Position numbers and translations under genes: made by a program. DNA of 64,000 bases, taken from assembly GCA_965219845.1 (NCBI GenBank), contig CBDCOP010000007.1:335640-399639 (forward strand), given 5' to 3'. The stretch comes from Dehalococcoidia bacterium. GTDB taxonomy: Bacteria > Chloroflexota > Dehalococcoidia > Lucifugimonadales > Australimonadaceae. This document shows, piece by piece, positions 8,876 to 64,000 of this stretch. Position 1 is the stretch's first letter. Each line of letters opens with the position of its first letter. The notes under the pieces were generated by a model. It worked only from the letters and a program-made list of their open reading frames with translations. It had not been told where the DNA came from and ran no database searches.

Positions 8876-8896
8876 GCGCGGCTCTGCGAGCCTGCC

Positions 8897-9280: not shown

Positions 9281-9401
9281 CTGATCGGTGCTCACGAAGC
9301 TTCTCCTGTGACGTTCACGCGGATGCCGATTGGAGCATTGTGCCCTGTGCAACCGGCGATGCCAACATTTTACATGGACGCGGGAGCGGAACAGGCGCGG
9401 C

Positions 9402-26655: not shown

Positions 26656-28047
26656 ATGGCAACCCTGGTGCAGGAAGGCGCGGTAAGGCGACAAGGCAGC
26701 GAAGGCTCGCGGCCCAGATACGACTCCAAGGTCTATGACGAAGCCGTACTGGGATTCAAGAACTACTGGTACCCGATCTTCTCCTCCAGGTCCGTCGGCA
26801 GGAAGCCCGTCGGCATCACGGTCATGGGCGAGGGGATCGTCCTCATGCGAACGCCCAGGGGTGTCGCAAGAGCGCTGTCCGACGAGTGTGCGCACCGAGG
26901 TACGATACTGTCGATCGGCGAGGGCTGCCTCATCAAGGGTTCGGACACCATCACCTGCCCCTACCACGGCTGGACGTACGACCTGAACAACGGCATGTGC
27001 GTTGCAGTCCTTCCCGAGGGCCCCAGGAGCGAAGTCCCTGGCAAGATCAGGATCCGTTCCTATCCCGTGGAGGAGCGCAAGGGCATCATCTGGGTCTGGA
27101 TGGGCAAGGGCGCCCCCGTCCCGATCGAAGAAGACATCCCGAACCTCATGCAGCGGGACGACGCGATCGTCAAGTTCCGGCCGAGAGTGCAATACGGCAA
27201 CTGGCGGTGGCACAGCGAGAACACCGCTGGAGGCCACGCCCAGATGATCCACAAGAGTTCGTTCCGAGTCTGGCTCACGAGGCCGCGGCCCATGAACCTC
27301 CCGTCGCAGCCCCACGTCACCCATGACGTCGATGGCACTGGCGTCGACAACGGCTTCATCCCTCGCGGCAAGCCCCTGCCGGGCGAGCCAAAGCCCCCCA
27401 TACCGCCCATGTACACGGAGTATCCGGGGCTGGGGACCTGGAGCCCCCAGCCGAAGTGGCGGCAGATACTGCTATGGCCGTGGCTGAGACGGTTCCGCAA
27501 GAGCCTCGGCTCCGACGTGCACGGGGTCAGCAAGATGATGATGATGTTGCCCGGCGTCTTCAGGGTCCCGAACTTCCCGAGCGCCAGCAACATCTACTAC
27601 GAGTGGTACGTGCCCGTCGATGAGGACCACTACCTCTACGCACAGGTCTCGTGTCTGTGGGGCTCCAACCCGCTCCAGAGACTGTGGAAGAACGTGTGGT
27701 ACTACGTCTGGGGAAAGCCGACGGGACTGGTCCAGTTCAACAATCAGGACCTTACGTTCACCCGTCAGACGACCAACTACACGAAGCGGCACGGTATCGC
27801 CTCGTACCCGCACACGAAGCTCAGCCGGAACGACGACTTCCACCGAACGTGGCGTCAGTTCGCCTCAGAGTTCGCGCGCGGCGAGGGTTACGCCTACCAG
27901 GACGGCTACATCCCCGCGGAATCCCCGTTGCTGGGCATGGTGCCCCAGCTTCCCTGGATGGAGGATGCGGTAGCTGAAACCGAAGACGAGAAGGAGTCGA
28001 CAGAACTTCGTCAAACTGAAACTGTTCCGGCAGGCGGGTCTGACTAG
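26656..28047 (+). CDS. Rieske [2Fe-2S] oxygenase
   Basis: Rieske motif CAHRGTILS...CPYHGW. Paralog of 28217..29431 (shared YWYP, RSYPVEERKGI.WVW, YGNWRWH). Confidence 0.85.
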   Translation: MATLVQEGAVRRQGSEGSRPRYDSKVYDEAVLGFKNYWYPIFSSRSVGRKPVGITVMGEGIVLMRTPRGVARALSDECAHRGTILSIGEGCLIKGSDTITCPYHGWTYDLNNGMCVAVLPEGPRSEVPGKIRIRSYPVEERKGIIWVWMGKGAPVPIEEDIPNLMQRDDAIVKFRPRVQYGNWRWHSENTAGGHAQMIHKSSFRVWLTRPRPMNLPSQPHVTHDVDGTGVDNGFIPRGKPLPGEPKPPIPPMYTEYPGLGTWSPQPKWRQILLWPWLRRFRKSLGSDVHGVSKMMMMLPGVFRVPNFPSASNIYYEWYVPVDEDHYLYAQVSCLWGSNPLQRLWKNVWYYVWGKPTGLVQFNNQDLTFTRQTTNYTKRHGIASYPHTKLSRNDDFHRTWRQFASEFARGEGYAYQDGYIPAESPLLGMVPQLPWMEDAVAETEDEKESTELRQTETVPAGGSD

Positions 28048-50873: not shown

Positions 50874-50929
50874 ATGCTGGTCCGGAGCTGCGTGAATCCT
50901 ATCACAATATCCCGCGCATGCAAACCGGA

Positions 50930-51254
50930 ATCCTCTTTTGCCCCCTCTCCCTACAAGGGGAGAGGGTTGGGGTGAGGGTACTCCGTGGCGGGGCGGCGGG
51001 GACTATCATCCCAAGCGGAGCGCCGCGGAGTAGAGGCATCCTCTTTTGCCCCCTCTCCCTACAAGGGGAGAGGGCTGGGGTGAGGGTACTCCGTGGCGGG
51101 GCGGCGCGGACTATTATCCCCAAGCGGAGCGCCGCGGAGTAGAGGCATCCTCTTTTGCCCCCTCTCCCTACAAGGGGAGAGGGCTGGGGTGAGGGTACTC
51201 CGTGGCGGGGCGGCGCGGACTATCATCCCGAGCGGAGCGCCGCGGAGTAGAGGC
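50930..51254. repeat. Tandem repeat, 3 units of 108-109 bp (plus a degenerate fourth unit to about 51330)
   Basis: Units 50930-51037, 51038-51146 and 51147-51254 are near-identical. Each contains the hairpin CCCTCTCCC-TACAAG-GGGAGAGGG, a G-rich tail (GGGGTGAGGGTACTCC) and the GAGCGCCGCGGAGTAGAGGCATCC module. Confidence 0.95.
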
Positions 51255-51341
51255 ATCTCCCAAGCTCCCCTCTCCCAATGGTGGGAGAGGGTTGGGGTGA
51301 GGGTTGGCGGGGTGGGGTGGGCACGCGGGAATCAGGGCTGC

Positions 51342-52016
51342 CTATTGCGGCTCGCCCGGCTTCCCAAGGTCCTCCAGCCCCGGCAGGTCCTCCAGGAACT
51401 CCGAGAACGCTGAGAGCTTCTCGATCTCCTCCGGGGTGACCCCTTGCTGCGCCTGGCGCGGCCTCCGGCGCGGCTGCTGCCCTTCGGTACTCTCCTCCAC
51501 ACTGCCGTCCACCACGACGCCCGCGCGCTCCAGCACACGGTCCTCTACGAAGATCGGCACCTTGGAGCGCACGTCCGCCGCGTCGCCGCCGCCCTGACGC
51601 GCGAAGTCCTCCGCCTCCTGCAGCGACGAGAACCAATGGTCCTCGCCGTCCTTCCCCTGCACCAGTTGCCCGCCGCGCACCGCGATCGCTATCGCGTCGC
51701 TCGGGCGGCAGTCGATCTCCGTCTCCGTTCCGTCCGCCAGCCTCAGCACGAGCCGGGCGAAGAACGTGTCGTTCTCCAGGTCGCAGACGACGACGTGCCG
51801 GATGGACGCCCCCAGCGTCGTGATGACCCCGCCAAGCAGGTCATGCGTGAGCGGTCGCGCCGCCGAAACGTCCTGCAGCTTCAGCGCGATGGCGTCCGCT
51901 TCCGGCGACCCGATACGGATCGGCAGGTAGCGGTCGCTCTCCCGCTCTTTCAGGATGACGACGCGCTGATAGTTCATCAGGCTGACGCGGATACTGTCGA
52001 TGAGCATCTCTTGCAT
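51342..52016 (-). CDS. Bifunctional nuclease (DUF151/BFN) domain protein
   Basis: VVILKERESDRYLPIRIGSPEADAIALKL...RPLTHDLL is the DUF151 core. Acidic C-terminal tail. Start at MQEMLID (ATG 52016). Confidence 0.75.
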   Translation of the reverse strand: MQEMLIDSIRVSLMNYQRVVILKERESDRYLPIRIGSPEADAIALKLQDVSAARPLTHDLLGGVITTLGASIRHVVVCDLENDTFFARLVLRLADGTETEIDCRPSDAIAIAVRGGQLVQGKDGEDHWFSSLQEAEDFARQGGGDAADVRSKVPIFVEDRVLERAGVVVDGSVEESTEGQQPRRRPRQAQQGVTPEEIEKLSAFSEFLEDLPGLEDLGKPGEPQ

Positions 52017-52085
52017 GGCACACCTTCCGGCGGCCATTCTAGGGAGACGCCCCGCCAACGGTCAACGCAAGGGGCGAGGGATATT

Positions 52086-52387
52086 GTCATTCCGAGCGGA
52101 GCGCAGCGGAGTCGAGGGATCTCTCGGACGCCGCCCTGCGGGCCGGGGGGGTGAGGGTAATCCGGAGTGTGCGGGGCGTCTGGTCCCTTCTCCCTTGAGG
52201 GGAGAAGGCTAGGATGAGGGTGAACCGGCGGGGCCGGGGATGCACGGTGGGAGTTGTCATTCCGAGCGGAGCGCAGCGGAGTCGAGGAATCTCTCGGACG
52301 CCGCCCTGCGGGTCGGAGGGGTGAGGGTAATCCAGAGGGTGCGCGGTTTGGGATGGGAGCGGGCGTTCTGGTCCCCTCTCCCTACAA
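52086..52387. repeat. Tandem composite repeat, period 169 bp (unit 2 interrupted by the element at 52388)
   Basis: GTCATTCCGAGCGGAGCGCAGCGGAGTCGAGG.ATCTCTCGGACGCCGCCCTGCGGG... starts at 52086 and again at 52255. Each unit ends in a CCC(T)TCTCCC hairpin module. Confidence 0.85.
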
Positions 52388-52520
52388 AGGGACCTTTGCA
52401 TAACCGTGAGGGGAGGTGCGGTGCGGGGTCATTTAATCCCTTCCCCCTCGATGGGGGAAGGCTAGGATGGGGGTGAATCGGCGGGGTCTGGGGTGTGCGA
52501 TGGGATTATGCAAGTGTCTC
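52388..52520. mobile_element. MITE-like 133-bp element (copy 1) in a hairpin loop, flanked by TACAA
   Basis: Left end AGGGACCTTTGCATAACC. Right end degenerate (ATTATGCAAGTGTCTC, 13 of 17 TIR positions). TACAA at 52383-52387 and 52521-52525. Outer flanks CCCCTCTCCC / GGGGAGAGGG rebuild the common hairpin module. Confidence 0.6.
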
Positions 52521-52655
52521 TACAAGGGGAGAGGGTGCGCATCGAGATGCGCGGGTGAGGGTACTCCGGGGCCGGGCGTTCTGCTCCCCTCTCCCTCTGG
52601 GAGAGGGGCTGGGGGTGAGGGTTGGGGCGTGGGGGACTTGTGCGCCGACCGCTCC

Positions 52656-53309
52656 CTACAGCATCGCGCCCGTGGGCTGCAGCACCACAACCTGCGTCTC
52701 GTCCGGCAGGTTGGCCCGCGTCACGGTCAGACGCGCCAGCGCCTCTGGCTCGCGGACGCCCAGCTCCTGCAGGAACGGCCCCAGTTCGCGCAGCGGATGC
52801 TTGTTCCCGGCGTGCGCGTACAGCATCGGGATAACGATGCGCGGCTCGACGCTCTTCACGATCTCCACCACGTCCGCCGCCGACAGCCCCGTGTCGCTCC
52901 CCACCGGCGCCATCAGCACGTGCGGCGACCCCAGCGCGTCCACTTCCTTGTTCGTGAGCAGCCGGTCCGGGTTCCCCAGGTGACAGAGCGTGAGGCCCTC
53001 CGCCAGCACGGTGAACACCGCGTTCCACTGCTGCGGCTCCCCCTCGTGCGTGCGCCGCGTCGTGCGGAGGCCGCGCAGGTGCATCCCTGCCGCCTCGTAC
53101 TCGCCCGGGCCTTCGAGCGCGATCGGCTCGCCTGACAACGCGCCGAGCGCCGAGTGGAACGGGTCGTTGCTGCTCTGCGTCACGAGGTCCGCCTGCGCCT
53201 GCTGCGGCGGTATGCGCACCCCCAGCTCCGGCGGGAACGGGTCCATGATCAGCGTCTTGTTTCCGGAGCGCACGCGGAACGCCGCGTGCCCAAGCCAGGT
53301 GATATCCAC
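52656..53309 (-). CDS. MBL-fold metal-dependent hydrolase (UPF0173-like)
   Basis: ITWLGHAAFRVRSGNKTLIMDPF N-terminus. GTG start at 53309 proposed, as the longer ORF overlaps bioY completely. Confidence 0.65.
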   Translation of the reverse strand: MDITWLGHAAFRVRSGNKTLIMDPFPPELGVRIPPQQAQADLVTQSSNDPFHSALGALSGEPIALEGPGEYEAAGMHLRGLRTTRRTHEGEPQQWNAVFTVLAEGLTLCHLGNPDRLLTNKEVDALGSPHVLMAPVGSDTGLSAADVVEIVKSVEPRIVIPMLYAHAGNKHPLRELGPFLQELGVREPEALARLTVTRANLPDETQVVVLQPTGAML

Positions 53310-53311
53310 CC

Positions 53312-53965
53312 CTAACGCTCCCTGCGCCCGACGAGCGCCCACGCTCCGGGCAGCGCGACCGAGGCGACGTACAGCTTCGCGAGGTCGCCCGCCACGAACG
53401 GCCACAGTCCCCACTGCAGCGTGTCCGGGATGATGCTCGCGCCGGACGTCCACTCCTTGTCCACCGCCCAGTAGCCCAGCCACAGCAGCCCCGGCACGTA
53501 GAGCACCACGTTGCCCGCGAGCAGCGCCAGCAGCACGCGCCAACTGCGGTCCCAGCCGCGCTCCGACAGCCGCCCGACGACCCACGCCGCGGCGATGAAG
53601 CCGACGATGTAGCCGCCGCTGGCGATCTGCCAGACGAGGTCGCTGCTGCCCGCCCACGGCGCGATGAAGTGGAAGACCGTCCCCTCGCCGAGCGATGGCG
53701 CGAAGACCGGCAGGCCGACCATGCCCACCAGCATGTACAGCGCGAGGCTCGCGGCCCCGCGGTTCGCCCCCAGTGCGCCGCCCGTGAGCAGCACCGCGAG
53801 CGTCTGGCCCGTGATGGGGACGGGAGTGAACGGCAGCTTCACCGCGATCTGCGCAAACAGCGCCACGAGCATCGCGAACCCGACCACGAGCGCCGCGTCG
53901 CGCAGCAACCCTTCGCCGGGAAATACCGAATCTATGAGCGCGGAACGTGGTTGTGCTGCCTGCAT
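53312..53965 (-). CDS. bioY: Biotin transporter BioY
   Basis: PFTPVPITGQTLAVLLTGGALG...LYMLVGMVGLPVFA is the BioY signature region. Polytopic. Confidence 0.85.
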   Translation of the reverse strand: MQAAQPRSALIDSVFPGEGLLRDAALVVGFAMLVALFAQIAVKLPFTPVPITGQTLAVLLTGGALGANRGAASLALYMLVGMVGLPVFAPSLGEGTVFHFIAPWAGSSDLVWQIASGGYIVGFIAAAWVVGRLSERGWDRSWRVLLALLAGNVVLYVPGLLWLGYWAVDKEWTSGASIIPDTLQWGLWPFVAGDLAKLYVASVALPGAWALVGRRER

Positions 53966-54005
53966 GCAGGCAGTATACAGGATGCGCCTCTACGGCTGGC
54001 GGAGC

Positions 54006-54452
54006 CTACGCGGCGGCCAGTTCGCGGCGCACCACCTGTGCCAGGTCATGCGGAAGGTCAGCGGCGGCAGTCGGTCCCCATACTCCGTCCTTCGTCGGCG
54101 GTATGTGGAAAACCGGCTGCCAGTCCAGCCAGCCTGCAAGCTGCTTCCATGCTCCGATGAGAGTGCCCGACGCGACCTTCTTCTTGAAGCCGAGGACCTC
54201 GACGCTGAGCCAGTCGAGTGTTTCGGGGTCGGCGATGACGATGATGCTCCCGTCGAAGAGCGCTATGCCCTCGCGGGGCTCGCCCAAGGTGATGTACAGA
54301 TGATCGTCCTCGCCGAAGTAATCGATCAGGATGCCCTTCCGCCGGATCACCTGGTCCAGGTCGCGGTTCTTCCGCAGGAAACGCGCCTGCATGGCCTTGT
54401 TCTGCTTGTTAACAGACTTCCTGAGCGCCTCAAATTCCTGTTCGATGCTCAT
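54006..54452 (-). CDS. Hypothetical protein with DUF2283-like core (possible antitoxin partner)
   Basis: 148 aa from MSIEQE (ATG 54452). DYFGEDDHLYITLGEP...VEVLGF resembles the DUF2283 pattern. ATGA overlap with the upstream gene. Confidence 0.4.
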   Translation of the reverse strand: MSIEQEFEALRKSVNKQNKAMQARFLRKNRDLDQVIRRKGILIDYFGEDDHLYITLGEPREGIALFDGSIIVIADPETLDWLSVEVLGFKKKVASGTLIGAWKQLAGWLDWQPVFHIPPTKDGVWGPTAAADLPHDLAQVVRRELAAA

Positions 54453-54799
54453 GGCCCCGTCTCCCCCGGACTCCTGCGCCAGCAGAACATCTCTCCGGCC
54501 GTGATCCTTGACGTGAACAACACGCTCTTCACGTAGTGCGCCCCATTCGTGTCCGCATCCTCCACGACTCGAAACCAGCACCCTGCCGTTTTGCCGGAGC
54601 CGTACCCCATCCGGTACTTGAATATTACCCCGTGCTCATCCCGTACCGCAAAATCGGGGTCGGCGGCGGTTTCCCTGGCGCTATCGAGGCACTCGTCTAT
54701 CTCCGGCCTCTTCGTGACGTGCTTCAGCCAGTTCGACTCGTGCAGATAGCTCTCGGTACCGGTACAGGGATTATCTGTGCGCCAAGACTCTACCGCCAT
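54449..54799 (-). CDS. Hypothetical protein, possible RNase-type toxin (Barnase-EndoU-ColicinE5/D-RelE-like pattern)
   Basis: 116 aa. H-x3-W-x-KHVTKRPEI followed by DPDFAV...beta-rich core resembles small toxin families that start with the (k)H(i/v)..(r)(h/p)pe motif. Recognition by eye only. Confidence 0.35.
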   Translation of the reverse strand: MAVESWRTDNPCTGTESYLHESNWLKHVTKRPEIDECLDSARETAADPDFAVRDEHGVIFKYRMGYGSGKTAGCWFRVVEDADTNGAHYVKSVLFTSRITAGEMFCWRRSPGETGP

Positions 54800-54824
54800 C
54801 TAACGTTCCGGCTCGCGCATGAGC

Positions 54825-54915
54825 CCACCACCCCTACGACCGCCGCCTCCGAAGCGCGACAGCGCCTACTCCCACGATGGCCGCGATGCCAACGACCACG
54901 ACCAGCAGGACGATG
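54825..54915. repeat. Orphan duplicate of the 3-prime end of gene 55526..56344
   Basis: 84 of 91 nt identical to 55517-55607, same orientation. On the minus strand it still encodes AIVLLVVVVGIAAIVGVGAVALRRRRS-stop, but an in-frame TGA precedes it. Confidence 0.9.
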
Positions 54916-54935
54916 GCGCGACGCTGTCAATAACC

Positions 54936-55343
54936 TCAAGCGTAGGTGTAACCAACGCTCTCCCTACGTGCGGCAGCATCCAGTTCACCGTCGAGGGTAG
55001 CCAGTGAGGACTGGCGACGAATCGCCGTCTCAAGATATGCCGCGTCATAGAAAGTCAGGTGGTGACGATGCGCGAGGTCGAGAGTTTCCATCTCAACGTG
55101 ACCGTCATCGATCTCGATCTGGAGCTCTCCGAGCCGCCCCAGGAAGTGCATCGTCCCTTCCCTGTCGATGCGACCTCGCCATTCCGCTCTCACCAGCACG
55201 TTGCGTATCTCGTACCAGAATATCCGAGGAGTGATTCCGGGTTCGCTGATGAGGCGCATCGCAACCGCGTCGGCCCTGGACGCGCCTTCTTCCTCAGGAA
55301 AACACCAAGCGAGTGCTACGGAAGCGTCCAAGACGATAGCCAT
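54936..55343 (-). CDS. vapC: PIN-domain toxin VapC
   Basis: 135 aa. PIN acidic residues in VLDASV, WYEIRNV and FYDAAYLETA, with a C-terminal LATLDGEL. Confidence 0.85.
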   Translation of the reverse strand: MAIVLDASVALAWCFPEEEGASRADAVAMRLISEPGITPRIFWYEIRNVLVRAEWRGRIDREGTMHFLGRLGELQIEIDDGHVEMETLDLAHRHHLTFYDAAYLETAIRRQSSLATLDGELDAAARRESVGYTYA

Positions 55344-55498
55344 CAGTAACGGCCTTCGTCTCTCATCCTCCGAATCTCCTCCCGCGGAACTCTCTGTCGC
55401 TGGTCGCGTTCGGCAAGCATGCGCGAAACAACCTGCCTGCGGAGTGCTTCGCTACGGGGCGTGATGTGCTTGAGGCGCGTCTCTCTCTTGGTGGCCAT
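55343..55498 (-). CDS. vapB: Putative VapB-type antitoxin (51 aa, below the ORF-track cutoff)
   Basis: My own translation: MATKRETRLKHITPRSEALRRQVVSRMLAERDQRQRVPREEIRRMRDEGRY. Its TGA shares one nucleotide with the vapC ATG (TGATG). Confidence 0.6.
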   Translation of the reverse strand: MATKRETRLKHITPRSEALRRQVVSRMLAERDQRQRVPREEIRRMRDEGRY

Positions 55499-55525
55499 GT
55501 CCCGATTCTACACCCGCCACCACCC

Positions 55526-56344
55526 CTACGACCGCCGCCTTCGCAGCGCGACGGCCCCGACCCCCACGATGGCCGCGATGCCAACGACCACGACCAGCAC
55601 GACGATGAGTGCGCCGCCGCCACCCGAGTCGTCGCCCGGCACAGTCGCGACCGGCGTCAGCGTGGCCGCGGCATCCGCAGGGGGCGCAGGCGTGGGCGTC
55701 GCCGTCGGTGGGACCGGCGTCGCCGTCGGGGCCGGCGTGGGCGTTGCGGTCGGGATCGGCGTGGGGGTGGGCGTCGGCGTGGGCGGAACAACCAGTATCT
55801 CGCCGGCGGGCGGCGGGAGGTGTCCGCATGGCGTATCGGTGCGCGGCTCCGAGCCCGCGCCGAACCGCAGCTCGACGCTCTCCACGAAGCACGGCTCAGA
55901 CATGTGCGCGAACGGGTACGTCAGGCCAGCCTGCTGCTCCCCGTTCAGGTGGAACGTCACGGCCTCGCCGACGTAGACATAGCGCGGAGGGTCGCCGCTG
56001 AGGTAGCCCGGCGGCCCGACGAGCAGACAGCCCTCGTCGCTGGCGCAGTCGAACATGCCGTTCACTATCGGGATCCGCTTCTCGCGCTCCCAGTCGCCCA
56101 CGCGCACGACGATCTCGCCCTCCGCGACCGGCTCGCCGTTCAGCACCACGGTGCCCTCGAGGTAGACGACCGGGAACGGCGGGATGCTCTGCTGCCGCTT
56201 CTCGTCGTCGCCGCCGTCCTGCGCCGACGCAACGAGCGGCACGACCAGCGCCGCCGCAAGCAGCGCAGCCACGATGAGGAACGTTCGGGAAAAGGGGCTG
56301 AGAACGCCGGAGCCGATAGCGGAAGCGTGAGAGAAACGAGGCAT
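55526..56344 (-). CDS. Secreted PT-rich protein with C-terminal TM anchor and RRRRS tail
   Basis: 272 aa: signal peptide (FLIVAALLAAALVVPLVASAQD), a globular ~150-aa part, a long Pro/Thr linker, then GGGGALIVVLVVVVGIAAIVGVGAVALRRRRS. Confidence 0.65.
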   Translation of the reverse strand: MPRFSHASAIGSGVLSPFSRTFLIVAALLAAALVVPLVASAQDGGDDEKRQQSIPPFPVVYLEGTVVLNGEPVAEGEIVVRVGDWEREKRIPIVNGMFDCASDEGCLLVGPPGYLSGDPPRYVYVGEAVTFHLNGEQQAGLTYPFAHMSEPCFVESVELRFGAGSEPRTDTPCGHLPPPAGEILVVPPTPTPTPTPIPTATPTPAPTATPVPPTATPTPAPPADAAATLTPVATVPGDDSGGGGALIVVLVVVVGIAAIVGVGAVALRRRRS

Positions 56345-56513
56345 GCGCAGATTCTATGGGAGCGTCCGCGCCCTTGTCATGGGGCTTGTGGCACAAGCTT
56401 TCCACTCTCCCTACAAGGGGAGGAGGGCGCCGCCCCTGCGGACAAGGCGTAGACGAAAGAGCCGGGGGGCGGTGGGTGAGGGTACTGCGGCCCGGAGGGC
56501 GAGGGTACTGCGG

Positions 56514-56973
56514 CCCCTCCCCGTCGTTCCTGCGGAGGCAGGAACCCGCGCTTTAGCGCGCCGCAGCCCCTGGGTAGGAGGCTACGCTCAACATGACAAA
56601 GCGTAGACGAAAGAGCCGGGGGGCCGGCGTGCGTGTCAGGCGGGCAGCAGCCGCATGGCGGCGACCGTAAGCGACGCGATGAGCGCCAGCCCGCCGAGGC
56701 CCCGCCACATCAGGCGGGCCTCCATCTGAGCGATACGGACTGACAGCTCCTCGTGCTGACGCGCGTTCTCCTCCTTGAAGGAGTCGAACTCCCGGCGGAA
56801 GTCGGAGAAGTAGCGGGGTATCCACTCTCCTTCCGTATTGGGCTGCGGTTCGGTCGTCATGCGCTCATCCGCCTCGGTCGCTGGCAGTATAGCACGTCCG
56901 CACTATAACGGCTGCCACCACTGGCGTATGGCGCCCGCGCATGTCGGTGTAGGACAACCCCCGTCGTTCCTGC
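56514..56973. repeat. Segmental duplication copy A (carries small gene 56636..56860)
   Basis: Colinear with 57637-58080, high identity by eye, with one indel block just downstream of the small gene stop. Confidence 0.85.
56636..56860 (-). CDS. Small tail-anchored membrane protein (copy A)
   Basis: 74 aa: MTTEPQPNTEGEWIPRYFSDFRREFDSFKEENARQHEELSVRIAQMEARL followed by a C-terminal hydrophobic helix. Differences from copy B are few and mostly conservative. Confidence 0.55.
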   Translation of the reverse strand: MTTEPQPNTEGEWIPRYFSDFRREFDSFKEENARQHEELSVRIAQMEARLMWRGLGGLALIASLTVAAMRLLPA

Positions 56974-57478
56974 GGAGGCAGGAACCTCGCAGCCTGCCTG
57001 ATCCCCTCTCCCTACAAGGGGAGAGGGTTAGGGTGAGGGTACTGCGGGGCGGAGGGTGCCGCCCCTGCGGCCGGCGCGTGAGGGTACTGCGGGCGGTGGG
57101 TGAGCGTACTGCGGGCGGTGGGGGCGGGGGTGGGAGGACTGTCATTCCGAGCGAAGCCGAGGAATCTCTCACAAGACGCCCCGCCGTCCTGCGACGCTCT
57201 CCCCGAGAGATGTTTCGGCTACGCTCAACATGACAAGGCGTAGACGAAAGAGCCGGGGGGCGGAGGGTGAGGGTACTGCGGCCCGGAGGGTGAGGGTACT
57301 GCGGCCCCTCCCCGTCGTTCCTGCCTCCGCAGGAACCTCGCAGCCCTGGGGGGGCTTGTCATTCCGAGCGAAGCCGAGGAATCTCTCACAAGACGCCCCG
57401 CCGTCCTGCGACGCTCTCCCCGAGAGATGTTTCGGCTACGCTCAACATGACAAGGCGTAGACGAAAGAGCCGGGCGGC

Positions 57479-57639
57479 GGAGGGTGAGGGTACTGCGGCC
57501 CGGAGGGTGAGGGTACTGCGGCCCGGAGGGCGAGGGTACTGCGGCCCGGAGGGCGAGGGTACTGCGGCCCGGAGGGCGAGGGTACTGTGGCCCGGAGGGC
57601 GAGGGTACTGTGGCCCGGAGGGCGAGGGTACTGCGGCCC
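57479..57639. repeat. 23-bp G-rich tandem repeat, 7 units
   Basis: GGAGGG(T/C)GAGGGTACTG(C/T)GGCCC x7. Only 2 units are present at the paralogous positions 56474-56519 and 57262-57307. Confidence 0.95.
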
Positions 57640-58080
57640 CTCCCCGTCGTTCCTGCGGAGGCAGGAACCCGCGCTTTAGCGCGCCGCAGCCCCTGGGTAG
57701 GAGGCTACGCTCAACATGACGAACGCGCGTCGCCCCGCGTGTCAGGCAGGCAGCAGCCGCATTGCGGCGACCGTAAGCGACGCGATGAGCGCCAGCCCGC
57801 CGAGACCCCGCCACATCAGGCGCGCCTCCATCTGAGCGATGCGGCCGGACAGCTCCGCATGCTGACGCGCGTTCTCCCCCTTGAAGGAGTCGAACTCCCG
57901 GCGGAAGTCGGAGAAGTAGCGGGGTATCCACTCGCCCTCCGTATTGGCCTGCGGTTCGGTCGTCATGCGCTCATCCACTTCGGTCGCTGGCAGTATAGCC
58001 GTCAGCACTATACCTGTTGCCACCGATAGCGCATGCGCCCGCGCGTGTCTCGGCGTGGGACGCCCCTCGTCGTTCCTGCG
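57637..58080. repeat. Segmental duplication copy B (carries small gene 57742..57966)
   Basis: Colinear with 56514-56973. Confidence 0.85.
57742..57966 (-). CDS. Small tail-anchored membrane protein (copy B)
   Basis: 74 aa from the ATG at 57966, near-identical to copy A (MTTEPQANTEGEWIPRYFSDFRREFDSFKGENARQHAELSGRIAQMEARL...). Confidence 0.55.
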   Translation of the reverse strand: MTTEPQANTEGEWIPRYFSDFRREFDSFKGENARQHAELSGRIAQMEARLMWRGLGGLALIASLTVAAMRLLPA

Positions 58081-58248
58081 CCTTACTTGTCATTCCGAGC
58101 GAAGCCGAGGAATCTCTCAGGAGACGCCCCGTCGCGCACCAACGTTCTCCCCGAGAGATGTTTCGACTCCGCTCAACATAACAAAGAGCCCCCGTCGTTC
58201 CTGCGAAGGCAGGAACCTCGCAGCCTGCCTGGTCCCCTCTCCCTACAA

Positions 58249-58380
58249 AGGGACCTTTGCATAACCGTGAGAGGGGATGTGGGGCGGGGTTATTTGATCC
58301 CTTCCCCCTCGATGGGGGAAGGTTAGGATGGGGGTGATTCGCGGGGTTTGGGGTGTGCGATGGGGTTACGCAAAGGTCCC
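58249..58380. mobile_element. MITE-like 132-bp element (copy 2, best preserved) in a hairpin loop, flanked by TACAA
   Basis: Ends GGGACCTTTGCATAACC / GGTTACGCAAAGGTCCC (16 of 17 inverted). TACAA at 58244-58248 and 58381-58385. Internal hairpin CCTTCCCCC-TCGAT-GGGGGAAGG. Flanks equal the uninterrupted modules at 56403-56440 and 56985-57030. Confidence 0.7.
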
Positions 58381-58695
58381 TACAAGGGGAGGAGGGCGCC
58401 GCCCCTGCGGGCCGGCGGGTGAGGGTACTGCGGAGGCGGGGCGTGGGGGTGCTGTGGGAGCGAGGAAAGAGCCCCCCGTCGTCCCTGTCCTTACTTGTCA
58501 TTCCGAGCGCAGCCGAGGAATCTCTCGGGAGACGCCCCGTCGCGCACCAACGTCCGGCCCGCGCGCCCCTGGGCGGGACGCCCCCCCCCAAAGCAAGAGC
58601 CCCCGCCGTATGGCGGGGGCTCTTCCACGTAACCTTGCTTGCCTCCCCTCCCCCTCTGGGAGAGGGGCACGCGCTTCAGCGCGCGGTGAGGGTCC

Positions 58696-61600
58696 TTACG
58701 GGGCGAGCGTGCTCGGTGTGTTCGACCACACCCAGTAGCCGTTGCCGTTCACTATCTCGTCATCGCTGGCGTCCTTCGGCACGGTCTTGACCCAGAGGCT
58801 CGCGGTCGTGTCGTACGTGTACGCCACGCGCCACGGGATGCTGCTCAGGTACTCGTCGGCCTCGCCGCTGCCAACGGTTTCATCCCCTGACTCGTCCTTT
58901 GTCGTCTCGCCCGGAGCCTGACCCTGGTCGTTCTGGTGAACGTCCAGCACGCCGAGCAGGTTCCAGCCCTGCGTCACCGAGACGGTCGGCAGCGTCGACG
59001 CCGGGTCGGTCTCCGCCAGCATCGTCTCGATGGTCTCGAACGTCCGAGCGTGGATCCAGTAGCCGTAGCCGCCGGTGATCTCCGTCAGCCGTCCGCGCCA
59101 CGTGCCGTCCTCTTCCTGGATCGCCGTGACCCAGTCGCCCTGCTGGTAGCCAAGCACCGGCGAGATGTACGGGTTGTTCGCCAGCACACTGCCGATCGCA
59201 GGCTCCAGCGGCGTGGCCGGCAGCGAGATCAGGTTCCAGCCCGGCGTTACGTCGATCTCGTACGGCTGGCGCGGTAGCACGTCGAAGGTGAAGTTGCCCT
59301 CATCCGACTCGTTGCCCGCGTCGTCCGCCACCGCGTACCAGACCTTGTACTCGCCGACCTCCAGGTCGCGCATCACCAGCGAGAACTCGTTCGAGTCGAT
59401 GCGCGCCAGGTTCGCGTACGCGTCATCGCCGTTCACCGTGATCTCGACCACCTCGACACGAGAGTGCGAGTCCTTGTACTCCGCGGCAGGGTTGGCGTCC
59501 TCGCCTTCGCCGCCGCACTTGAACGGCGCTTCAGCCGTGCCGGCCGGGCAGACCTCGTACTCGCGCCCCTCGCTCGAGAAGTCCAGCTTCACGAACGGGT
59601 TGGAACTCTCCGTCTCCTCGCCGTCAGAGTCGCTGCGCGGCGTCACGAAGACCTTTCCGGCTTCCTCGACCAGCCTGTCAATCTCGATCAGCAGGTCGGC
59701 GTCGTCCATCTTGCCGGGGTCCAGCTTCTTGCCCGCGGTGGGCGCAACCGCATCGCGGTGCGACCTAGGCGACCAGCCCGCCGTCGCGCCGCTGTTGTCC
59801 TCGTCGTCATCGGTCACGACGATCACGCCCACCAGTCCGTCATCGAAGACGCTCAGGTCGCCGGAAGACACCTTGTACTTACGGTTCCAGTGGTTCTCGT
59901 CTTCCTGCGCCGTCAGCGATCCAGCCTGGTCAAGGGCGCCGATCGTGTAGTCGTAACCGTCCTCGTCCTCGTTCAACGCAGCACTGAGCGAGACGAAGTA
60001 CAGCGTTGGGCGGCTCACGTCCTCGTCAGCCGTCACGTCGACGGTGAACGAGCCGCTCTTCGCGTTCGCCACCTGGCGGTCCGGCGCCGTGCCCGTGACC
60101 GTCACGGTCAGCTTCGGCGCGATCCAGTCGTCCGCCTCGTTGAGTGTCTCCGCACCGTTGGTATTGCCCGCGAGGTCGTATACGGCCCCGCCGACCACCT
60201 GCACCGTCGGCGTCGCGTCGGACGCCAGGTCCTCGGCCAGCTCGATGTAGACGGTGGCGCGCGGCTCGGTGATGGTCTCGTCCCTGATGTCCGTGCCGGG
60301 GTTGGCGGCCTTGTTGAACGCAGCCAGGGCTTCTTCCCAAGCGGTCTCCGCTTTTTCCTCAGCCTCCACGGCTGAGTCGTACAGAGCGTCGTCGATCTTG
60401 TACTGGGTCCACCGTCCGCAGAGTTCGATGTTGTCGTCATCGGTGTCAGCAGTGGAAGCGCACTCTGTGGCCGACGGCTCCGCGGTAGCCGGCGGGGTGG
60501 GCGCCACCGTCGTGTCAGCGCTGTCAGCAGTGTACTGCTCCCAACGCCCTTGAAGGAGTAGGGTCGCATTCTGCTCAGCTGTCCGTGGGTCGGCATTCCT
60601 TGCTGCTGAAACCTCGCTGCTGCTTGGCCTGGTAGTAGCCGGTTCAGCAGCCGAGTACGAAACCGCGGTGGGCGGGAACTCATCCCGCGTCGGGGCTGCC
60701 TGGTTCCGGTTGATGGCCGGCGCCCTGCTCGGGTGGATGTAGCCGACGACGTTGTGGCCGACCACTGTGATGTTGTCCGTGTTCACGTCGCCGAGAGCGT
60801 CCGCTCCGCCGACACCGAACGAGTTGAAGGTGAGCGCGATGTAGGAGCGGTCGACTTCCTCCTCGTTCTTCTCCGTGTCGTAGGAGATGCCGGTGCGCGC
60901 CTCCACCAGGTCTGGGTCCGTGTCGTCCACGCGGAACACGAACGGCTGGTCGCCGGGCGCGAGCCGGTCGTCGTCTCCGTCGGTCTCGCTCCAGTTGCCC
61001 GCGCGGTCACGCGCCCGCAACTGGTAGAGGTAGGAGCCGTCGCTCTTGTCCGCGCCGCTGGCGGTGAAGGCGTAGGCGACGCCCGCCCGGCTGCCCGCGA
61101 TGCTCCACGTGCCCGACGCGCTGATGTCCCTCTCGTCGTTCGGCGGAGTCCCGTTCATGGGGTTGGTCGCGATGTTGACGTCGATGTCCGCGGCGGGGCC
61201 GTTCGCCGCGACCTGCGCCTCGGTATCGACGGAGAGCGGCTCGGTCTCGAGGTGCGGGTCGCCGTCCGGGTTGATCTCCTCGTAGTCGCCGTCGTTGGAT
61301 ATGACGCTCTCGCCGTCGTGGCGCAGACCGGAGTCGTCGTCACGCACCTCGAAGCTGTAGGTGAGGCGGCTGGGGCGCGTCACGTCGTTGTCCTCGGGTG
61401 TGATGGCCGTGAAGTCCGGCCCGTCTCCGTCGACCGTCAACTCCACGCTCCCGGACTGGCCGGACACCGTGATGGTGATGCGGTCGCCGTGCCGTGCGAG
61501 GAGCGTAGCGATCTCCTGGACTACCGGAGGCCTGTCCCCTCCGGTGGCTGCAAAGCCCGTGGGGTTGTACTGCGCGGCGGTGGCCTGGGTTTCGACCTCC

Positions 61601-62367
61601 ACTGGTGTCGGTTCGTCAGTGTCGTCGTCAGGGGTCGCATCGTAGTCCCGCGTCTTGTCGTTCTCGCACCAGGTCGGGCCGCCGTGCTGTGTGAACGGGA
61701 CTTCACGCGCTTCGTCCCCGGTCCCGATAGTGACTGTGTCGCCCTGCTCGACGACCTTGAAGAACGCCTGGGAGTTGGCCCCGCCGGCGGCGACAACCAT
61801 CTCCATGGTGATGGACTGGCCGGAGCGGTTGTTCCGCACCGAGGCCGTTACGTTGGCCGTGCCGACCAACCGCTCATTCACGTCCTGCGTGTTCGGGTTG
61901 TTCTGGACACAGTTACGCCCGTCGGCGTTATTGCCGGTCAGCGCCGGATCGTGCGCCACGTTGACCAGGACGGTGTTGAAGGCGCCCACGTTGTTGGAGA
62001 CGTAGAGCGTGTTCCGGAAGAAGGTGTCCTGCGGGTCGACGCGTCGGTCCGCGAGGAACGCGGGGTCACCGTCATCATGCACCCCGTTGACGCCAGCACC
62101 GATATTCGTGGGGTCTGTCCCCGCCTCAATAGGAATGTGGGGAGGGGGAACAGGCGCCGTGCCAGGCCAGTCGGTGAACGTGGTCGGCCTCAGTTTCGCC
62201 AACTGGGCATCGTTGATGTCGTCGAAGACGCCGACAGAGAGGCCGGAGCGGTCACCTCCCCTGCCGTCGGTGATGTCGGATGTCTGCGCGATAGTCGGCA
62301 GAACGATGAGCAGCGAGAGCGCCACTGCCATCAAGGTCGCTATGAGCGGAATCTTCGTGAATCTCAC
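58696..62367 (-). CDS. Large secreted surface protein, family unnamed (paralog of 5026..8088)
   Basis: 1223 aa, GTG start with a purine-rich RBS. Signal peptide (IPLIATLMAVALSLLIVLPTIAQ). Same conserved blocks as the 1020-aa paralog, including FEVRDDDSGLRHDG and the C-terminal GWNLISLP...GYGYW...GWNLLG...WRVAYT...NGNGYWVW. Confidence 0.75.
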   Translation of the reverse strand: MRFTKIPLIATLMAVALSLLIVLPTIAQTSDITDGRGGDRSGLSVGVFDDINDAQLAKLRPTTFTDWPGTAPVPPPHIPIEAGTDPTNIGAGVNGVHDDGDPAFLADRRVDPQDTFFRNTLYVSNNVGAFNTVLVNVAHDPALTGNNADGRNCVQNNPNTQDVNERLVGTANVTASVRNNRSGQSITMEMVVAAGGANSQAFFKVVEQGDTVTIGTGDEAREVPFTQHGGPTWCENDKTRDYDATPDDDTDEPTPVEVETQATAAQYNPTGFAATGGDRPPVVQEIATLLARHGDRITITVSGQSGSVELTVDGDGPDFTAITPEDNDVTRPSRLTYSFEVRDDDSGLRHDGESVISNDGDYEEINPDGDPHLETEPLSVDTEAQVAANGPAADIDVNIATNPMNGTPPNDERDISASGTWSIAGSRAGVAYAFTASGADKSDGSYLYQLRARDRAGNWSETDGDDDRLAPGDQPFVFRVDDTDPDLVEARTGISYDTEKNEEEVDRSYIALTFNSFGVGGADALGDVNTDNITVVGHNVVGYIHPSRAPAINRNQAAPTRDEFPPTAVSYSAAEPATTRPSSSEVSAARNADPRTAEQNATLLLQGRWEQYTADSADTTVAPTPPATAEPSATECASTADTDDDNIELCGRWTQYKIDDALYDSAVEAEEKAETAWEEALAAFNKAANPGTDIRDETITEPRATVYIELAEDLASDATPTVQVVGGAVYDLAGNTNGAETLNEADDWIAPKLTVTVTGTAPDRQVANAKSGSFTVDVTADEDVSRPTLYFVSLSAALNEDEDGYDYTIGALDQAGSLTAQEDENHWNRKYKVSSGDLSVFDDGLVGVIVVTDDDEDNSGATAGWSPRSHRDAVAPTAGKKLDPGKMDDADLLIEIDRLVEEAGKVFVTPRSDSDGEETESSNPFVKLDFSSEGREYEVCPAGTAEAPFKCGGEGEDANPAAEYKDSHSRVEVVEITVNGDDAYANLARIDSNEFSLVMRDLEVGEYKVWYAVADDAGNESDEGNFTFDVLPRQPYEIDVTPGWNLISLPATPLEPAIGSVLANNPYISPVLGYQQGDWVTAIQEEDGTWRGRLTEITGGYGYWIHARTFETIETMLAETDPASTLPTVSVTQGWNLLGVLDVHQNDQGQAPGETTKDESGDETVGSGEADEYLSSIPWRVAYTYDTTASLWVKTVPKDASDDEIVNGNGYWVWSNTPSTLAP

Positions 62368-62769
62368 TTCTACCCCCCTTATGGAGCTGTAGTCTTGGGT
62401 TTGGCGCTCTCTCCGAGAGCAGGGTGGTCCGTTATTCCTCTGTACCTGCGCGTGCGGCGCTCCGCTTCATGTCCGATGCACAGCATGGCAGGGATGCTAT
62501 TGTCCAACGACAGCCGCCGCCCTTGCAATAGGATGCACGGGGCAGTTCTGGCCAAACCGCTCGTTATGTCTCTGCGTCAACACGCAACGCTCTTTCTACC
62601 AGCGTCACGCCCGCCTGTCAATGCAGAGGATGCGGTACACGCACAAGGATGCACAGGATGCACAGAATGGAGGCCCCCCGTCGTTCCTGCGAAGGCAGGA
62701 ACCTCGCGCTTTAGCGCGCCGCAGCCCCTATTGGGAAGGCGAGCCCGGCCCGATCCCCTCTCCCTACAA

Positions 62770-62900
62770 GGGGACCCTTGCACAATGTGGACGGACACCG
62801 GATAGCGGGGGGGGGGGGGTATTATCCCCTCTCCCTTGAGGGGAGAGGGTTAGGGTGAGGGTGAACCGGTGGGGCTGGGGCAGGGTTATGCAAAGGTCTC
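62770..62900. mobile_element. MITE-like 131-bp element (copy 3, divergent) in a hairpin loop, flanked by TACAA
   Basis: Ends GGGACCCTTGCACAATG / GGTTATGCAAAGGTCTC (12 of 17). TACAA at 62765-62769 and 62901-62905. The internal hairpin is CCCTCTCCC-TTGAG-GGGAGAGGG. Contains a G13 run (62807-62819). Confidence 0.55.
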
Positions 62901-63247
62901 TACAAGGGGTGAGGGTGAGGGTACTGTGGGCCGGGGCGTGGGGGTGTTGCGGGAGCGGGGGAGGACCTCGTCGTTCCTGCGCACCTTACTTGTCATTCCG
63001 AGCGCAGCCGAGGAATCTCTCAGGAGACGCCCCGTCGCGTACTAACGTTCCCTCATAAAGACAGAGACCGCCACGAGGGCGGTCTCGACCCTACCGGCGA
63101 AGCGATAGGGGTGGTAACACAAATGTACACGCCTACGGCACGCGTGGCAACCGCGCCGCGCTTCCTGACCCTCTCTCCCTCTGGGAGAGGGTGCCACGGC
63201 AGTGGCAGGTGAGGGTGGGCGCGACAGCGCCCCTTCCGTCATTCCAG

Positions 63248-63302
63248 CCCACACCCGTCATTCCAGCGAAGGCTGGAATCCAGGTGGCCGGCAGGCCACG
63301 CG
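63248..63302. repeat. Left copy of a perfect 55-bp direct repeat flanking the GIY-YIG gene
   Basis: CCCACACCCGTCATTCCAGCGAAGGCTGGAATCCAGGTGGCCGGCAGGCCACGCG, identical to 63946-64000. Contains hairpins ATTCCAGC-GAAG-GCTGGAAT and GTGGCC-GGCA-GGCCAC. Confidence 0.95.
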
Positions 63303-63490
63303 GTGGGGTGGGCGTGGGGTGAGGGCGGGACGGGACGCATGGGCGACCCCGATGCGCGGCTGCGCCGCGGTGTGCGCTGCCGCGCACGTCTGGATTCCAG
63401 CCTCCGCTGGAATGACGGGACCGGGGCTGGAACGACGAGAAAGGGGATGCCCGACAGGGCACACGGCTGGGAGTGGAGGGATGGGAAGCG

Positions 63491-63805
63491 TCAGCCAATC
63501 TCATCGTAGAGGTCGCGCCATTCAGGATTCGACTCCTCTATCAGCCTGAGCTTCCACTTCCTCTGCCACGCCTTGATCGCCTTCTCCCGGGCAATGGCGC
63601 TCATCATCGTCTCGTGCTGTTCGTACCACACGAGGGTGTGGACGCCGTGCCGCTTCGTGAAACCGTCACCGAAGCCCTGCTGGTGCTGCCAGATGCGCTG
63701 GGGCAGATCGGACGTAACGCCAAGGTAGAGCGTGCCGTTGCGGCGGCTCGCGAGGAGGTATACGCAGGGACGCCTGGGTTCCCTGCGGCGGTGACCATAG
63801 GTCAT
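63491..63805 (-). CDS. GIY-YIG nuclease family protein (YhbQ/UPF0213-like)
   Basis: VYLLASRRNGTLYLGVTSDLPQRIWQHQ (GIY...YIG, R, H) and EKAIKAWQRKWKLRLIE. Start taken at MTYGH (ATG 63805). Confidence 0.8.
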   Translation of the reverse strand: MTYGHRRREPRRPCVYLLASRRNGTLYLGVTSDLPQRIWQHQQGFGDGFTKRHGVHTLVWYEQHETMMSAIAREKAIKAWQRKWKLRLIEESNPEWRDLYDEIG

Positions 63806-63831
63806 GCGGAGAGTGTACGTGAAGGCGCCAG

Positions 63832-63964
63832 CCCACACCCGTCATTCCAGCCCACACCCGTCATTCCAGCCCACACCCGTCATTCCAGCCCACACCCGTC
63901 ATTCCAGCCCACACCCGTCATTCCAGCCCACACCCGTCATTCCAGCCCACACCCGTCATTCCAG
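63832..63964. repeat. 19-bp tandem repeat, 7 units
   Basis: CCCACACCCGTCATTCCAG x7 exactly, running into the right 55-bp direct repeat. The left locus (63238-63266) has only about 1.5 units. Confidence 0.97.
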
Positions 63965-64000
63965 CGAAGGCTGGAATCCAGGTGGCCGGCAGGCCACGCG
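63946..64000. repeat. Right copy of the perfect 55-bp direct repeat (truncated by the window end)
   Basis: Identical to 63248-63302. Confidence 0.95.

Follow-up and report, generated by a model that had tools for sequence, protein, structure and literature searches.

A dense edge of a repeat hot spot in a Chloroflexota genome: tagged hairpins with candidate Ssn-type partner genes, a triplex motif and its parasites

Hairpin-forming repeats between bacterial genes have been described in several kinds, including repetitive extragenic palindromes (REPs) with a CGTC tag, a set to which Neisseria dRS3 and Rickettsia RPE-4/6 belong (Di Nocera, De Gregorio & Rocco 2013, PMC3733652), the NTS and other Ssn-related motifs (SRMs) that accompany the small GIY-YIG nuclease SsnA of N. 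meningitidis (Chenal et al. 2025, PMC11893778), the TMECO/BoxC intrastrand triplex motif (Hoyne et al. 2000 as cited in Holder et al. 2015, PMC4666352), and the bacterial interspersed mosaic elements (BIMEs) and REP doublets (REPINs) of Enterobacteria and Pseudomonas, which go with REP-associated tyrosine transposases (RAYTs) (PMC2817692, PMC3333891, PMC3116915). Insertion sequences (ISs) that target REPs are also documented (IS1397, ISPpu9/10, IS621; PMC1525189, PMC12288879, PMC11208160). Here we analysed the last 13 kb (positions 50,880-64,000, hereafter the stretch) of a 64,000-nucleotide window, C7:335640-399639 of G000, which is a metagenome-assembled genome (MAG) of 3.54 Mb in 9 contigs with 65% G+C and 98% completeness. 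An initial annotation of the window had described five palindromic modules (M1 to M5) in the stretch and knew of no mechanism for them; this is too pessimistic, since M1, M2 and M4 match published kinds of repeat (PMC4666352, PMC3733652, PMC11893778) and REP-targeting ISs are known. The stretch forms one margin of a hot spot, the largest in the genome, at which small, structured and non-autonomous repeats overlie a conserved backbone of genes, and three kinds of element are mixed in it, namely tagged hairpins (M4, M2 and M3-M5), the triplex motif M1, and parasites of M1. The pile-up is genuine and unusually dense, yet it is a rich example of known selfish or structural DNA and no new class of element. 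What is notable in this host is the head-to-tail grammar, the three nuclease-hairpin pairs, and the use of triplex motifs as landing pads.

All five modules were located where the initial annotation had placed them, and its account of a small palindromic set recombining in varying number, with variant stems that stay complementary and with elements nested in one another (a miniature element inside M1 loops, see below), was borne out. Its contrast between the stretch and the first 50 kb also held. By the depth of blastn-short matches that the window has in its own genome, with multi-copy defined as at least three other genome copies, positions 1-50 kb contain practically no repeats (single exception, 26946-26985), whereas the gaps past 50.9 kb are multi-copy over 44-100% of their length each and over 64% of 4,251 nt overall. 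With our own gene calls based on codon usage, 0% of the intergenic space in 1-50,879 (5,809 nt) is repeated versus 54% in 50,880-64,000 (5,072 nt). To call this intergenic space 'almost entirely' modular was therefore an overstatement of a real 54-64%, the gap 62368-63490 reaching just 44%. Sequence made of 14-mers with at least 8 occurrences amounts to 16.8% of the stretch, versus 0.6% of the remaining window and 3.1% of the genome, and only 3 of 531 genome-wide 13-kb bins, all of them neighbours, are denser, which ranks the stretch about fourth in a hot spot that extends to about C7:460 kb. Nor are the modules limited to this stretch: the genome holds 212 M2, 48 M4, ~101 M3 and between 183 (strict) and 413 (broad) M1 copies, and ~90% of module copies genome-wide are intergenic. 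Our recount in the window gives 10 intact and 3 interrupted M1, 6 full M2 plus 2 heads, and 7 M3, against earlier figures of at least 14, at least 8 and about 7; the last of these stands. M5 is present too, but its second half (GCGTAGACGAAAGAGCC) is purely local, with 4 copies, all inside the window. All modules fold as hairpins better than shuffled sequences (z -2.3 to -4.9), and an Rfam E-value scan of 48-64 kb returned nothing real.

Tagged hairpins paired with small GIY-YIG nuclease genes

The tagged hairpins of the stretch and the gene among them are as follows (window coordinates).

52084-52125 and 52254-52295, plus strand: M3 left-end hairpins without right end (TGTC tag, ATTCC/GGGAT stem, long loop)
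56958-57047, plus strand: M2 (CGTC-GTTCCTGC-GGAG-GCAGGAAC-CTCGC) followed by M1, by fold; the pair recurs at 58189-58253
57139-57236, 57356-57453 and 58087-58184, plus strand: gene-less M3-M5 units, miniatures (fold z -4.86)
57309-57340, plus strand: M2 with the loop alone inverted (CTCC for GGAG), tag and tail still on the plus strand
62678-62712, plus strand: M2 hairpin
62990-63030, plus strand: solo M3 left-end hairpin
63256-63418, no single strand: inverted, REPIN-like M4 doublet 3' of Ssn1, with M4(+) at 63256-63283 and M4(-) at 63390-63418
63491-63838, minus strand: Ssn1, predicted single-domain GIY-YIG nuclease gene (PF01541, 3.9e-14), likely start ATG 63805
63828-63981, plus strand: tandem array of 7.3 x 19 nt in the 5' flank of Ssn1, made of M4 heads and, at its end, one full M4 at 63954-63981 (TRF, SRM pattern)

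M4 (CGTCATTCCAGCGAAGGCTGGAATCCAG; CGT-CATTCCAGC-gaag-GCTGGAATC-CAGG) and M2 (CGT-CGTTCCTGC-ggag-GCAGGAACC-TCGC) are, judged from their sequences, CGTC-tagged REPs, i.e., Ssn-related motifs. Both have the unpaired tag, the 8-9-bp stem, the 4-5-nt loop and the short CCA-type tail of this group. As in the published repeats, the tag may be CGTC or TGTC, the loop has 4 nt, the tail is short (CCA in M4) and no dedicated transposase is known; unlike them, M2 has a stem that begins with GT rather than AT, and M3 has a long loop (PMC3733652). The SRM pattern HGTCWYN(0-2)YYVSBRHN(0-5)WNVSBRGN(0-2)RNCYNB is matched by M4 at 63256-63283 and 63954-63981, and it has 126 matches in the genome versus 38-50 in five dinucleotide shuffles. 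The M2 copy with an inverted loop, which the initial annotation had noticed near 57315, is real, and inversion of the loop alone would be expected from hairpin-tip inversion or template switch.

G000 has two small GIY-YIG genes of the single-domain type, both inside the hot spot. Ssn1 has an inverted M4 doublet on each side (the inverted partner of the M4 at 63954-63981 lies just beyond the window end), and Ssn2 (C7:412.8-413.1 kb, 13 kb downstream) stands between tandem M2 arrays; the hairpins of the former end in ...GGAATCCAG and those of the latter in ...CTCGC. PF01541 is the only Pfam match of Ssn1, whose Y-11-Y-47-E spacing recurs in N. meningitidis SsnA between Y6, Y17 and E64, the residues mutated there (PMC11893778), and an NCBIfam search of the Ssn proteins returned nothing above the cut-off. 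Within 15 kb of the ssn genes the module families M1 to M4 are all over-represented, with 30 M2 observed versus 2.6 expected, and 10 versus 0.6 for M4, 9 versus 1.2 for M3 and 23 versus 5.1 for M1.

By surveying 20 loci in congeners, we found that the pairing of nuclease and hairpin extends beyond this genome. Tagged hairpins flank 11 of 11 Ssn1-like genes, 10 of them with CCAG/CAG-type tails, and hairpins with YCGY tails flank 6 of 6 Ssn2-like genes; the motif is found on both the 5' and the 3' side at 16 of 16 Ssn1/2-like loci (one of them, L033, counted by eye). The stems of the Ssn2 type differ by genome, being GTTCCTGC in G000 and ATTCCCGC in more distant species. A third Ssn clade, 44-47% identical to Ssn1, is absent from G000, which would have lost it, and present in congeners, and all four of its genes lie between a top-strand M3 head and an M5 end, the latter being an M3-like hairpin on the bottom strand; therefore M3 and M5 are the left and right ends of an ssn3-type cassette. 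M3 has a TGTC tag, a 5-bp stem and an 11-12-nt loop, and comparison with the reverse complement of M5 reveals a compensatory change from TCC/GGA to GTT/AAC. The 99-nt M3-M5 unit, of which the genome has 48 copies and the window 3, is a gene-less miniature of this cassette.

The same architecture recurs far outside the genus. Of the 575 relatives recovered from a scan of one genome per species, the best 80, ssn3-like loci, were examined for heads; these 80 span more than 10 phyla, including Chloroflexota, Cyanobacteria, Acidobacteriota, Desulfobacterota, Clostridia, Patescibacteria, Gemmatimonadota, Bacteroidota and Planctomycetota. Heads of the form GTCATNNNGAGCG occur on the top strand upstream in 55 of these 80, on the bottom strand downstream in 60, and in both positions in 47. 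With a stricter head pattern, most heads lie no more than 200 nt from the ssn3-like gene, with a span of 350-570 bp from head to head. In 111 of 198 heads the 5-nt stem ATNNN is followed at 19-20 nt by its exact complement, where stem swaps among heads gave an expectation of 17.6 and a maximum of 35, and this covariation covers eleven stem types, so that the M3 class is marked by a short variable stem around a conserved GAGCGNAGCGA loop.

These comparisons show, at the level of sequence, that each nuclease clade goes with its own class of hairpin. M4, M2 and M3/M5 would then be the end sequences and gene-less derivatives of three types of ~480-bp cassette, hairpin(+)-ssn-hairpin(-), each type predicted to encode a single small Ssn-like GIY-YIG nuclease. 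The ssn1 cassette of the congener G005, counted with the CGTC heads at its two ends, is 478 bp long and has the same exact bounds at other loci in seven genomes, and its site is empty in G033, G018, G015 and G013, where 15-16 nt separate the flanks; the orthologous site is a hot spot for insertions in general. By these bounds the cassette is a discrete unit, one that has both empty sites and miniatures.

The likeness to the system of N. meningitidis (PMC11893778) lies in a ~100-115-aa single-domain GIY-YIG gene with CGTC-tagged hairpins on both sides, in the fit of M4 to the SRM pattern (it is nearly NTS), and in hundreds of copies that are clustered, rarely intragenic and found by large surface-protein genes. 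The differences are that the genus has at least three nuclease clades, two of them in G000 and each with its own hairpin class, that M2 and M3 fall outside the SRM pattern (M3 with its 5-bp variable stem and conserved 11-12-nt loop), and that arrays are mostly head-to-tail, in a Chloroflexota host where the system is known from sequence alone. The discrete cassette with empty sites and the miniatures are found here, whereas that paper raised such a unit as a hypothesis only.

As a separate observation, a slot that follows a conserved ...GCGCAAYGGGGCGGTGTCACA segment and precedes a terminator and the 3' end of a surface-protein gene (C7:412.3 kb, L001; L036/L039) holds ssn2 with M2 arrays in G000 and an ssn3 cassette in G003 and G011, which looks like cassette replacement at a fixed site.

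The triplex motif M1 and the elements inserted in it

The M1 copies that stand singly or are split by insertions are listed here; two of them contain a MITE (miniature inverted-repeat transposable element) and one a decayed MITE.

52185-52222, plus strand: M1 of the GGGAGAAGG subfamily with matching third strand GGATGAGGG
52374-52562, plus strand: M1 split in its loop by a ~130-bp MITE (~52387-52518), which has its own subfamily-B M1 at 52438
52586-52622, plus strand: M1 with loop TCTGG
58234-58440, plus strand: M1 split in its loop by a MITE (58251-58379 = C7:393890-394018), with (C)TACAA(G) on both sides (fold)
62753-62925, plus strand: M1 split by a decayed MITE (~62771-62899; M1 motif at 62826)

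In sequence terms M1 is the TMECO/BoxC intrastrand triplex motif, a purine-motif element predicted to consist of a pyrimidine arm, a purine arm and a mirror third strand. It fits the TMECO pattern CCCTCNCCC N3-6 GGGNGAGGG N3 GGGNGAGGG exactly, with 183 strict matches in the genome and at least 6 in the window, and 5,409 of the 5,426 complete E. coli genomes carry copies of it, at 84-88% identity and 93-98% query coverage. A third strand that mirrors the purine arm at 8 or 9 of 9 positions, as G.G-C and A/T.A-T triads would require, accompanies 336 of 461 pyrimidine/purine hairpins of G000. The subfamilies pair GGGAGAGGG with GGGTGAGGG, GGGGGAAGG with GGATGGGGG and GGGGAGAAG with GATGAGGGT, and no cross-pairs occur; this agreement between stem and third strand is read as covariation, although no more than about three subfamilies are independent. 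In a duplex-only model the hairpin portion has a folding energy of -10.4 kcal/mol. The exact pattern and the intergenic position are shared with the published motif, and so are a copy number that varies strongly among close relatives and the rearrangement of carrier loci (PMC4666352). In contrast to that paper, which lists proteobacteria for the pattern and gives a maximum of 143 copies, the host here belongs to Chloroflexota and carries 183 strict copies in 3.5 Mb; two further subfamilies with co-varying stems and third strands are present, and M1 is the specific target of a MITE and an IS110.

The MITE is ~130 bp long, with terminal inverted repeats (TIRs) of 15-17 bp that read (A/G)GACCTTTGCATAAC. 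It has 47 copies of 120-140 bp, 3 of them in the window, with no coding capacity. About 45 of the 47 copies split an M1 hairpin in the loop, whose 7-8 nt are duplicated on both sides, and the MITE itself carries an M1 of another subfamily. The nesting seen in M1 is thus MITE insertion into the loop of the triplex hairpin with a 7-8-bp duplication. No autonomous partner of the MITE was found in G000. Ordinary genes lie between TIRs paired at distances of 0.4-4 kb, and the single pair with a transposase gene inside was rejected as a candidate partner, being a MITE with a nested IS110.

The second parasite is a 1130-bp IS110-family element, encoding a 312-aa DEDD/Transposase_20 protein, with six copies in G000, all outside the window (C1:487242, C3:23283, C4:194275, C6:333777, C6:190025 and C7:1222513). 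Each is inserted in M1 at a fixed position and has CT as its core. The C4 copy, 89% identical, is 6 nt off and in the other M1 subfamily, as if its guide had been retargeted. In their choice of one fixed place inside a structured repeat these insertions resemble the REP-targeting ISs IS1397, ISPpu9/10 and IS621 (PMC1525189, PMC12288879, PMC11208160), and IS621 also has a CT core (PMC11208160). Unlike in those cases, the target is a triplex motif and not a REP, and the element that targets the loop is a TIR-bounded MITE with a 7-8-bp duplication whose transposase was not found in the genome. Triplex motifs are landing pads here for two unrelated mobile elements.

Two further observations concern structured repeats of this stretch. 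In some M1 copies the 3-nt linker between purine arm and third strand is swapped for a GC-rich hairpin, e.g., CGCGCTTCAGCGCGC or TGCCACGGCAGTGGCA, with all three triplex strands retained (52536-52562, 58667-58692 and 63193-63212), and a similar CGCGCTTTAGCGCGC hairpin is found in the tail of some M2 copies (56546-56562). A different IS110-family element occupies the congener G003 at the orthologue of the gap 50874-51341 (L012 = C1:2227900-2237900, ~430-1700), where it lies inside an M3 hairpin, between GTCATT and CCGAGCG.

Growth and spread of the arrays

Repeated units of larger size are found at the following places.

50930-51304, plus strand: tandem array in which a 108-nt unit, made of M1 and a degenerate hairpin resembling M3, is present 3.5 times (TRF, module map)
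50942, 51050, 51159 and 51267, plus strand: M1 starts in this array (module map)
56470-56893, plus strand: copy 1 of a segmental duplication with 1106-nt spacing (copy 2, 57593-57999; 94% and 97%), containing 23-nt tail repeats, M2, a small CGCGC hairpin, an M5 end and a 74-aa gene
57478-57639, plus strand: tandem array of 7 x 23 nt, M1 third strand and tail (GGAGGGCGAGGGTACTGCGGCC) without hairpin (TRF)

Tandem units in the window are of 108, 23 and 19 nt, with 46-nt units beside ssn2, and half-module arrays are among them; the 1.1-kb duplication carries the 74-aa gene. Similarity is greater among copies separated by less than 2 kb (p-distance 0.21) than among distant ones (0.35-0.47). The modules had been said to vary in orientation, but ~90% of those in the window and 299 of 326 neighbour pairs genome-wide (299:27, 92%) point the same way, across families too. 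M2-M2 neighbours reach 45 in the same orientation versus 1 in the opposite, in contrast to the CGTC-tagged REPs of PMC3733652, which form mainly head-to-head dimers with negligible head-to-tail arrangement. Inverted pairs are confined to the surroundings of ssn genes and to M3-M5 units. Modules 1.5-5 kb apart are still co-oriented at 113:26, and farther out orientation is random. These data show that the arrays grow by local duplication.

Regarding a grammar of order and orientation, same-strand neighbours and a fixed M3-to-M5 spacing were recovered, but the other spacings between module types are variable, and fixed composite units were rejected on this ground. A tie between orientation and transcription was ruled out by the lack of bias with respect to flanking genes (M2 50:50, M3 26:24, M1 126:99), convergent gaps not being preferred either. 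A tie to replication was also set aside, as there is no relation to GC skew in 50-kb bins and plus-strand copies occur all over the closed chromosome of G005.

We favour the explanation, with a probability of roughly 0.6, that the stretch consists of ends and derivatives of ssn cassettes, the triplex motif M1 and the parasites of M1, spread via Ssn nicking and reshaped by slippage. In this scenario the hairpins would extrude when the DNA is single-stranded, and the cognate Ssn would bind and nick just 5' of the tag, by analogy with Neisseria, Wolbachia and others (PMC11893778). Repair or re-ligation would then copy modules to nearby sites, and arrays would expand and contract through slippage and unequal exchange between direct repeats, by which neighbours would stay co-oriented and similar. 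Triplex motifs, which are linked to instability in E. coli (PMC4666352), would probably add replication stalling. The enzymatic step that copies modules is one we infer, with the role of Ssn taken over by analogy.

Several results weigh against this explanation. Ssn is known solely as a nuclease (PMC11893778), and the best PDB matches of the Ssn proteins of G000 are weak (UPF0213 proteins, 2e-4). M2 and M3 fail the published SRM pattern, M4 being the sole match among the modules. The genomes G014, G032 and G033 hold 30-96 M2 without an Ssn1/2-like match, and G002, G004 and G009 hold Ssn genes without M2 of this stem; a simple dosage relation between Ssn and M2 across the genus is not seen. Likewise, G000 keeps ~100 M3 copies without an ssn3 gene, and M1 stands without any partner gene. 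Neither a target-site duplication nor a defined target was found for the hairpin modules at the orthologous ssn1 site and the M3-M5 units examined. Co-orientation up to 5 kb goes beyond the reach of sequence similarity, which fades past 2 kb, and the congener genomes are related, so that counts across them are not independent.

The arrays could instead have arisen passively, by replication slippage and recombination at structure-forming G-rich DNA with no dedicated enzyme, while Ssn would just restrict incoming single-stranded DNA as in Neisseria. The tandem and segmental duplications, the greater similarity of nearby copies, the instability of triplex motifs in E. coli (PMC4666352), the demonstrated role of Ssn in transformation (PMC11893778) and the persistence of M2 in genomes without Ssn all agree with this idea. 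We nevertheless consider it unlikely, because hundreds of dispersed copies in unrelated flanks require a dispersal step, a discrete 478-bp cassette lies at different loci with empty sites, the hairpin class tracks the nuclease clade, and the same architecture recurs in more than 10 phyla among the best 80 of 575 relatives. That the arrays serve the host as terminators, mRNA stabilisers, insulators or nucleoid-protein sites, being kept by selection and not selfish, would suit the ~90% intergenic location, the stable hairpins, and such roles of REPs and BIMEs in enterobacteria (PMC3733652); it is quite improbable in view of the absence of any orientation bias toward flanking genes or preference for convergent gaps, the 1-6 modules, and of other types, that the same congener gaps hold versus 69 in G000, and the half-module tandem arrays without obvious function.

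A classical REP/BIME-RAYT or IS200/IS605-type system, in which a Y1 (HUH) transposase mobilises the hairpins and the GIY-YIG gene is a bystander, has its own likenesses. These are high-copy extragenic palindromes in mosaic clusters of few units and short motifs, the CTAC in M5 (GTAG on the other strand), and inverted doublets, the likely mobile unit, around a small nuclease-type gene flanked by its own repeats, as REPs surround RAYT genes (PMC3333891, PMC2817692, PMC3116915). However, PF01797 has 0 matches in the 98%-complete G000, while the same search was positive in 6 of 14 control genomes, the tags are CGTC or TGTC and not GTAG, and the gene between inverted hairpins is GIY-YIG in every case examined. 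Moreover, neighbours are co-oriented, whereas REPs alternate in BIMEs (PMC2817692), and this system is accordingly very improbable. As for an assembly artefact, with repeats mis-joined or inflated, a 9-contig MAG with tandem arrays of 97-100% identity invites the suspicion, but its chance is next to negligible: single-contig congeners hold the same families, tandem triplets too, the arrays lie between uniquely placed syntenic genes, their units have internal substitutions, and orthologous gaps share exact borders in ten genomes.

Beyond the favoured explanation of cassette derivatives spread by Ssn nicking, a more general proposal is tentative. It is possible that GIY-YIG nucleases of the Ssn type mobilise a REPIN-like single-stranded DNA transposon system, that each clade of them has co-evolved with tagged hairpin ends of its own, with solo hairpins and gene-less doublets as the miniatures, and that several such systems and a triplex element target and compete for the same intergenic slots. 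If this is true, the M3 class would be the widespread source of spurious peptides of the 'VIPSEAEES / VILSEAKNL' type in many phyla. For annotation, the modules give a concrete identity to spurious open reading frames (ORFs) that pollute databases (PLSLQGERVGVRV, VIPSEAEESL, SFLRRQEP). At least three nuclease-hairpin pairs with distinct tails in one genus offer a natural panel for how Ssn reads its site, which has been named as a next step for single-strand DNA tools (PMC11893778). The bounds, empty sites and miniatures are comparative evidence for the hairpin-ssn-hairpin cassette as a mobile unit.

Gene backbone and rapid repeat turnover among congeners

The initial annotation had taken the 13-kb stretch as accessory, but its gene order (core - BFN nuclease - MBL hydrolase - BioY - p272 - 1223-aa Ig-like surface protein) is kept in nine congeners, with protein identities of 84-92% for the backbone neighbours and 50-68% for the 1223-aa protein. 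What is extra comprises the repeats, the duplicated 74-aa gene and a PIN/toxin-antitoxin cassette at 54.0-55.5 kb.

54006-55500, minus strand: accessory genes, comprising 148-aa and 116-aa ORFs and a PIN-domain toxin with its small upstream partner (Pfam, tblastn)

This cassette lies between BioY and p272 and is absent from the nine congeners at the site (query 8003-9524 unmatched; tblastn); the 148-aa and 116-aa ORFs in it have no Pfam match. The two copies of the 74-aa gene (56636-56860 and 57742-57966) are 94.6% identical, have no Pfam match either, and are absent from the congeners at the site.

Comparison with close relatives, which the initial annotation had proposed, showed that the same gaps hold differing module loads in the nine congeners, namely 1-6 modules in eight of them, 27 in G012 and 69 in G000, and G012, with the second-largest load, is besides G000 the one genome that has ssn1 here. 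At fixed sites, congeners are more than 10-fold apart in repeat load. The gap 50874-51341, which contains the 108-nt array in G000, has identical borders in all ten genomes and a different module set in each; its orthologues hold other modules in the 9 congeners and measure 134-270 nt, or 1393 nt in G003 with its IS110. In five genomes this gap opens with a CGTC-tagged hairpin whose position is constant and whose stem varies, suggesting in-place replacement as well as insertion of hairpins. Turnover of the repeats between congeners, as shown by these aligned gaps, is rapid.

Some minor observations concern the surface-protein genes. The Ig-like (Big_13) paralogues at 58696-62367 and at L001 (C7:413.5-417 kb) evolve fast, and ssn cassettes and the densest arrays adjoin genes of this kind, which recalls the NTS clusters by membrane-protein genes of Neisseria. 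The 360-nt segment on the 5' side of the 1223-aa gene (62263-62624) is 83-93% identical to segments at C7:409660 and C7:416896 and is also found in several congeners; it looks like a common leader or promoter region of the surface-protein paralogues.

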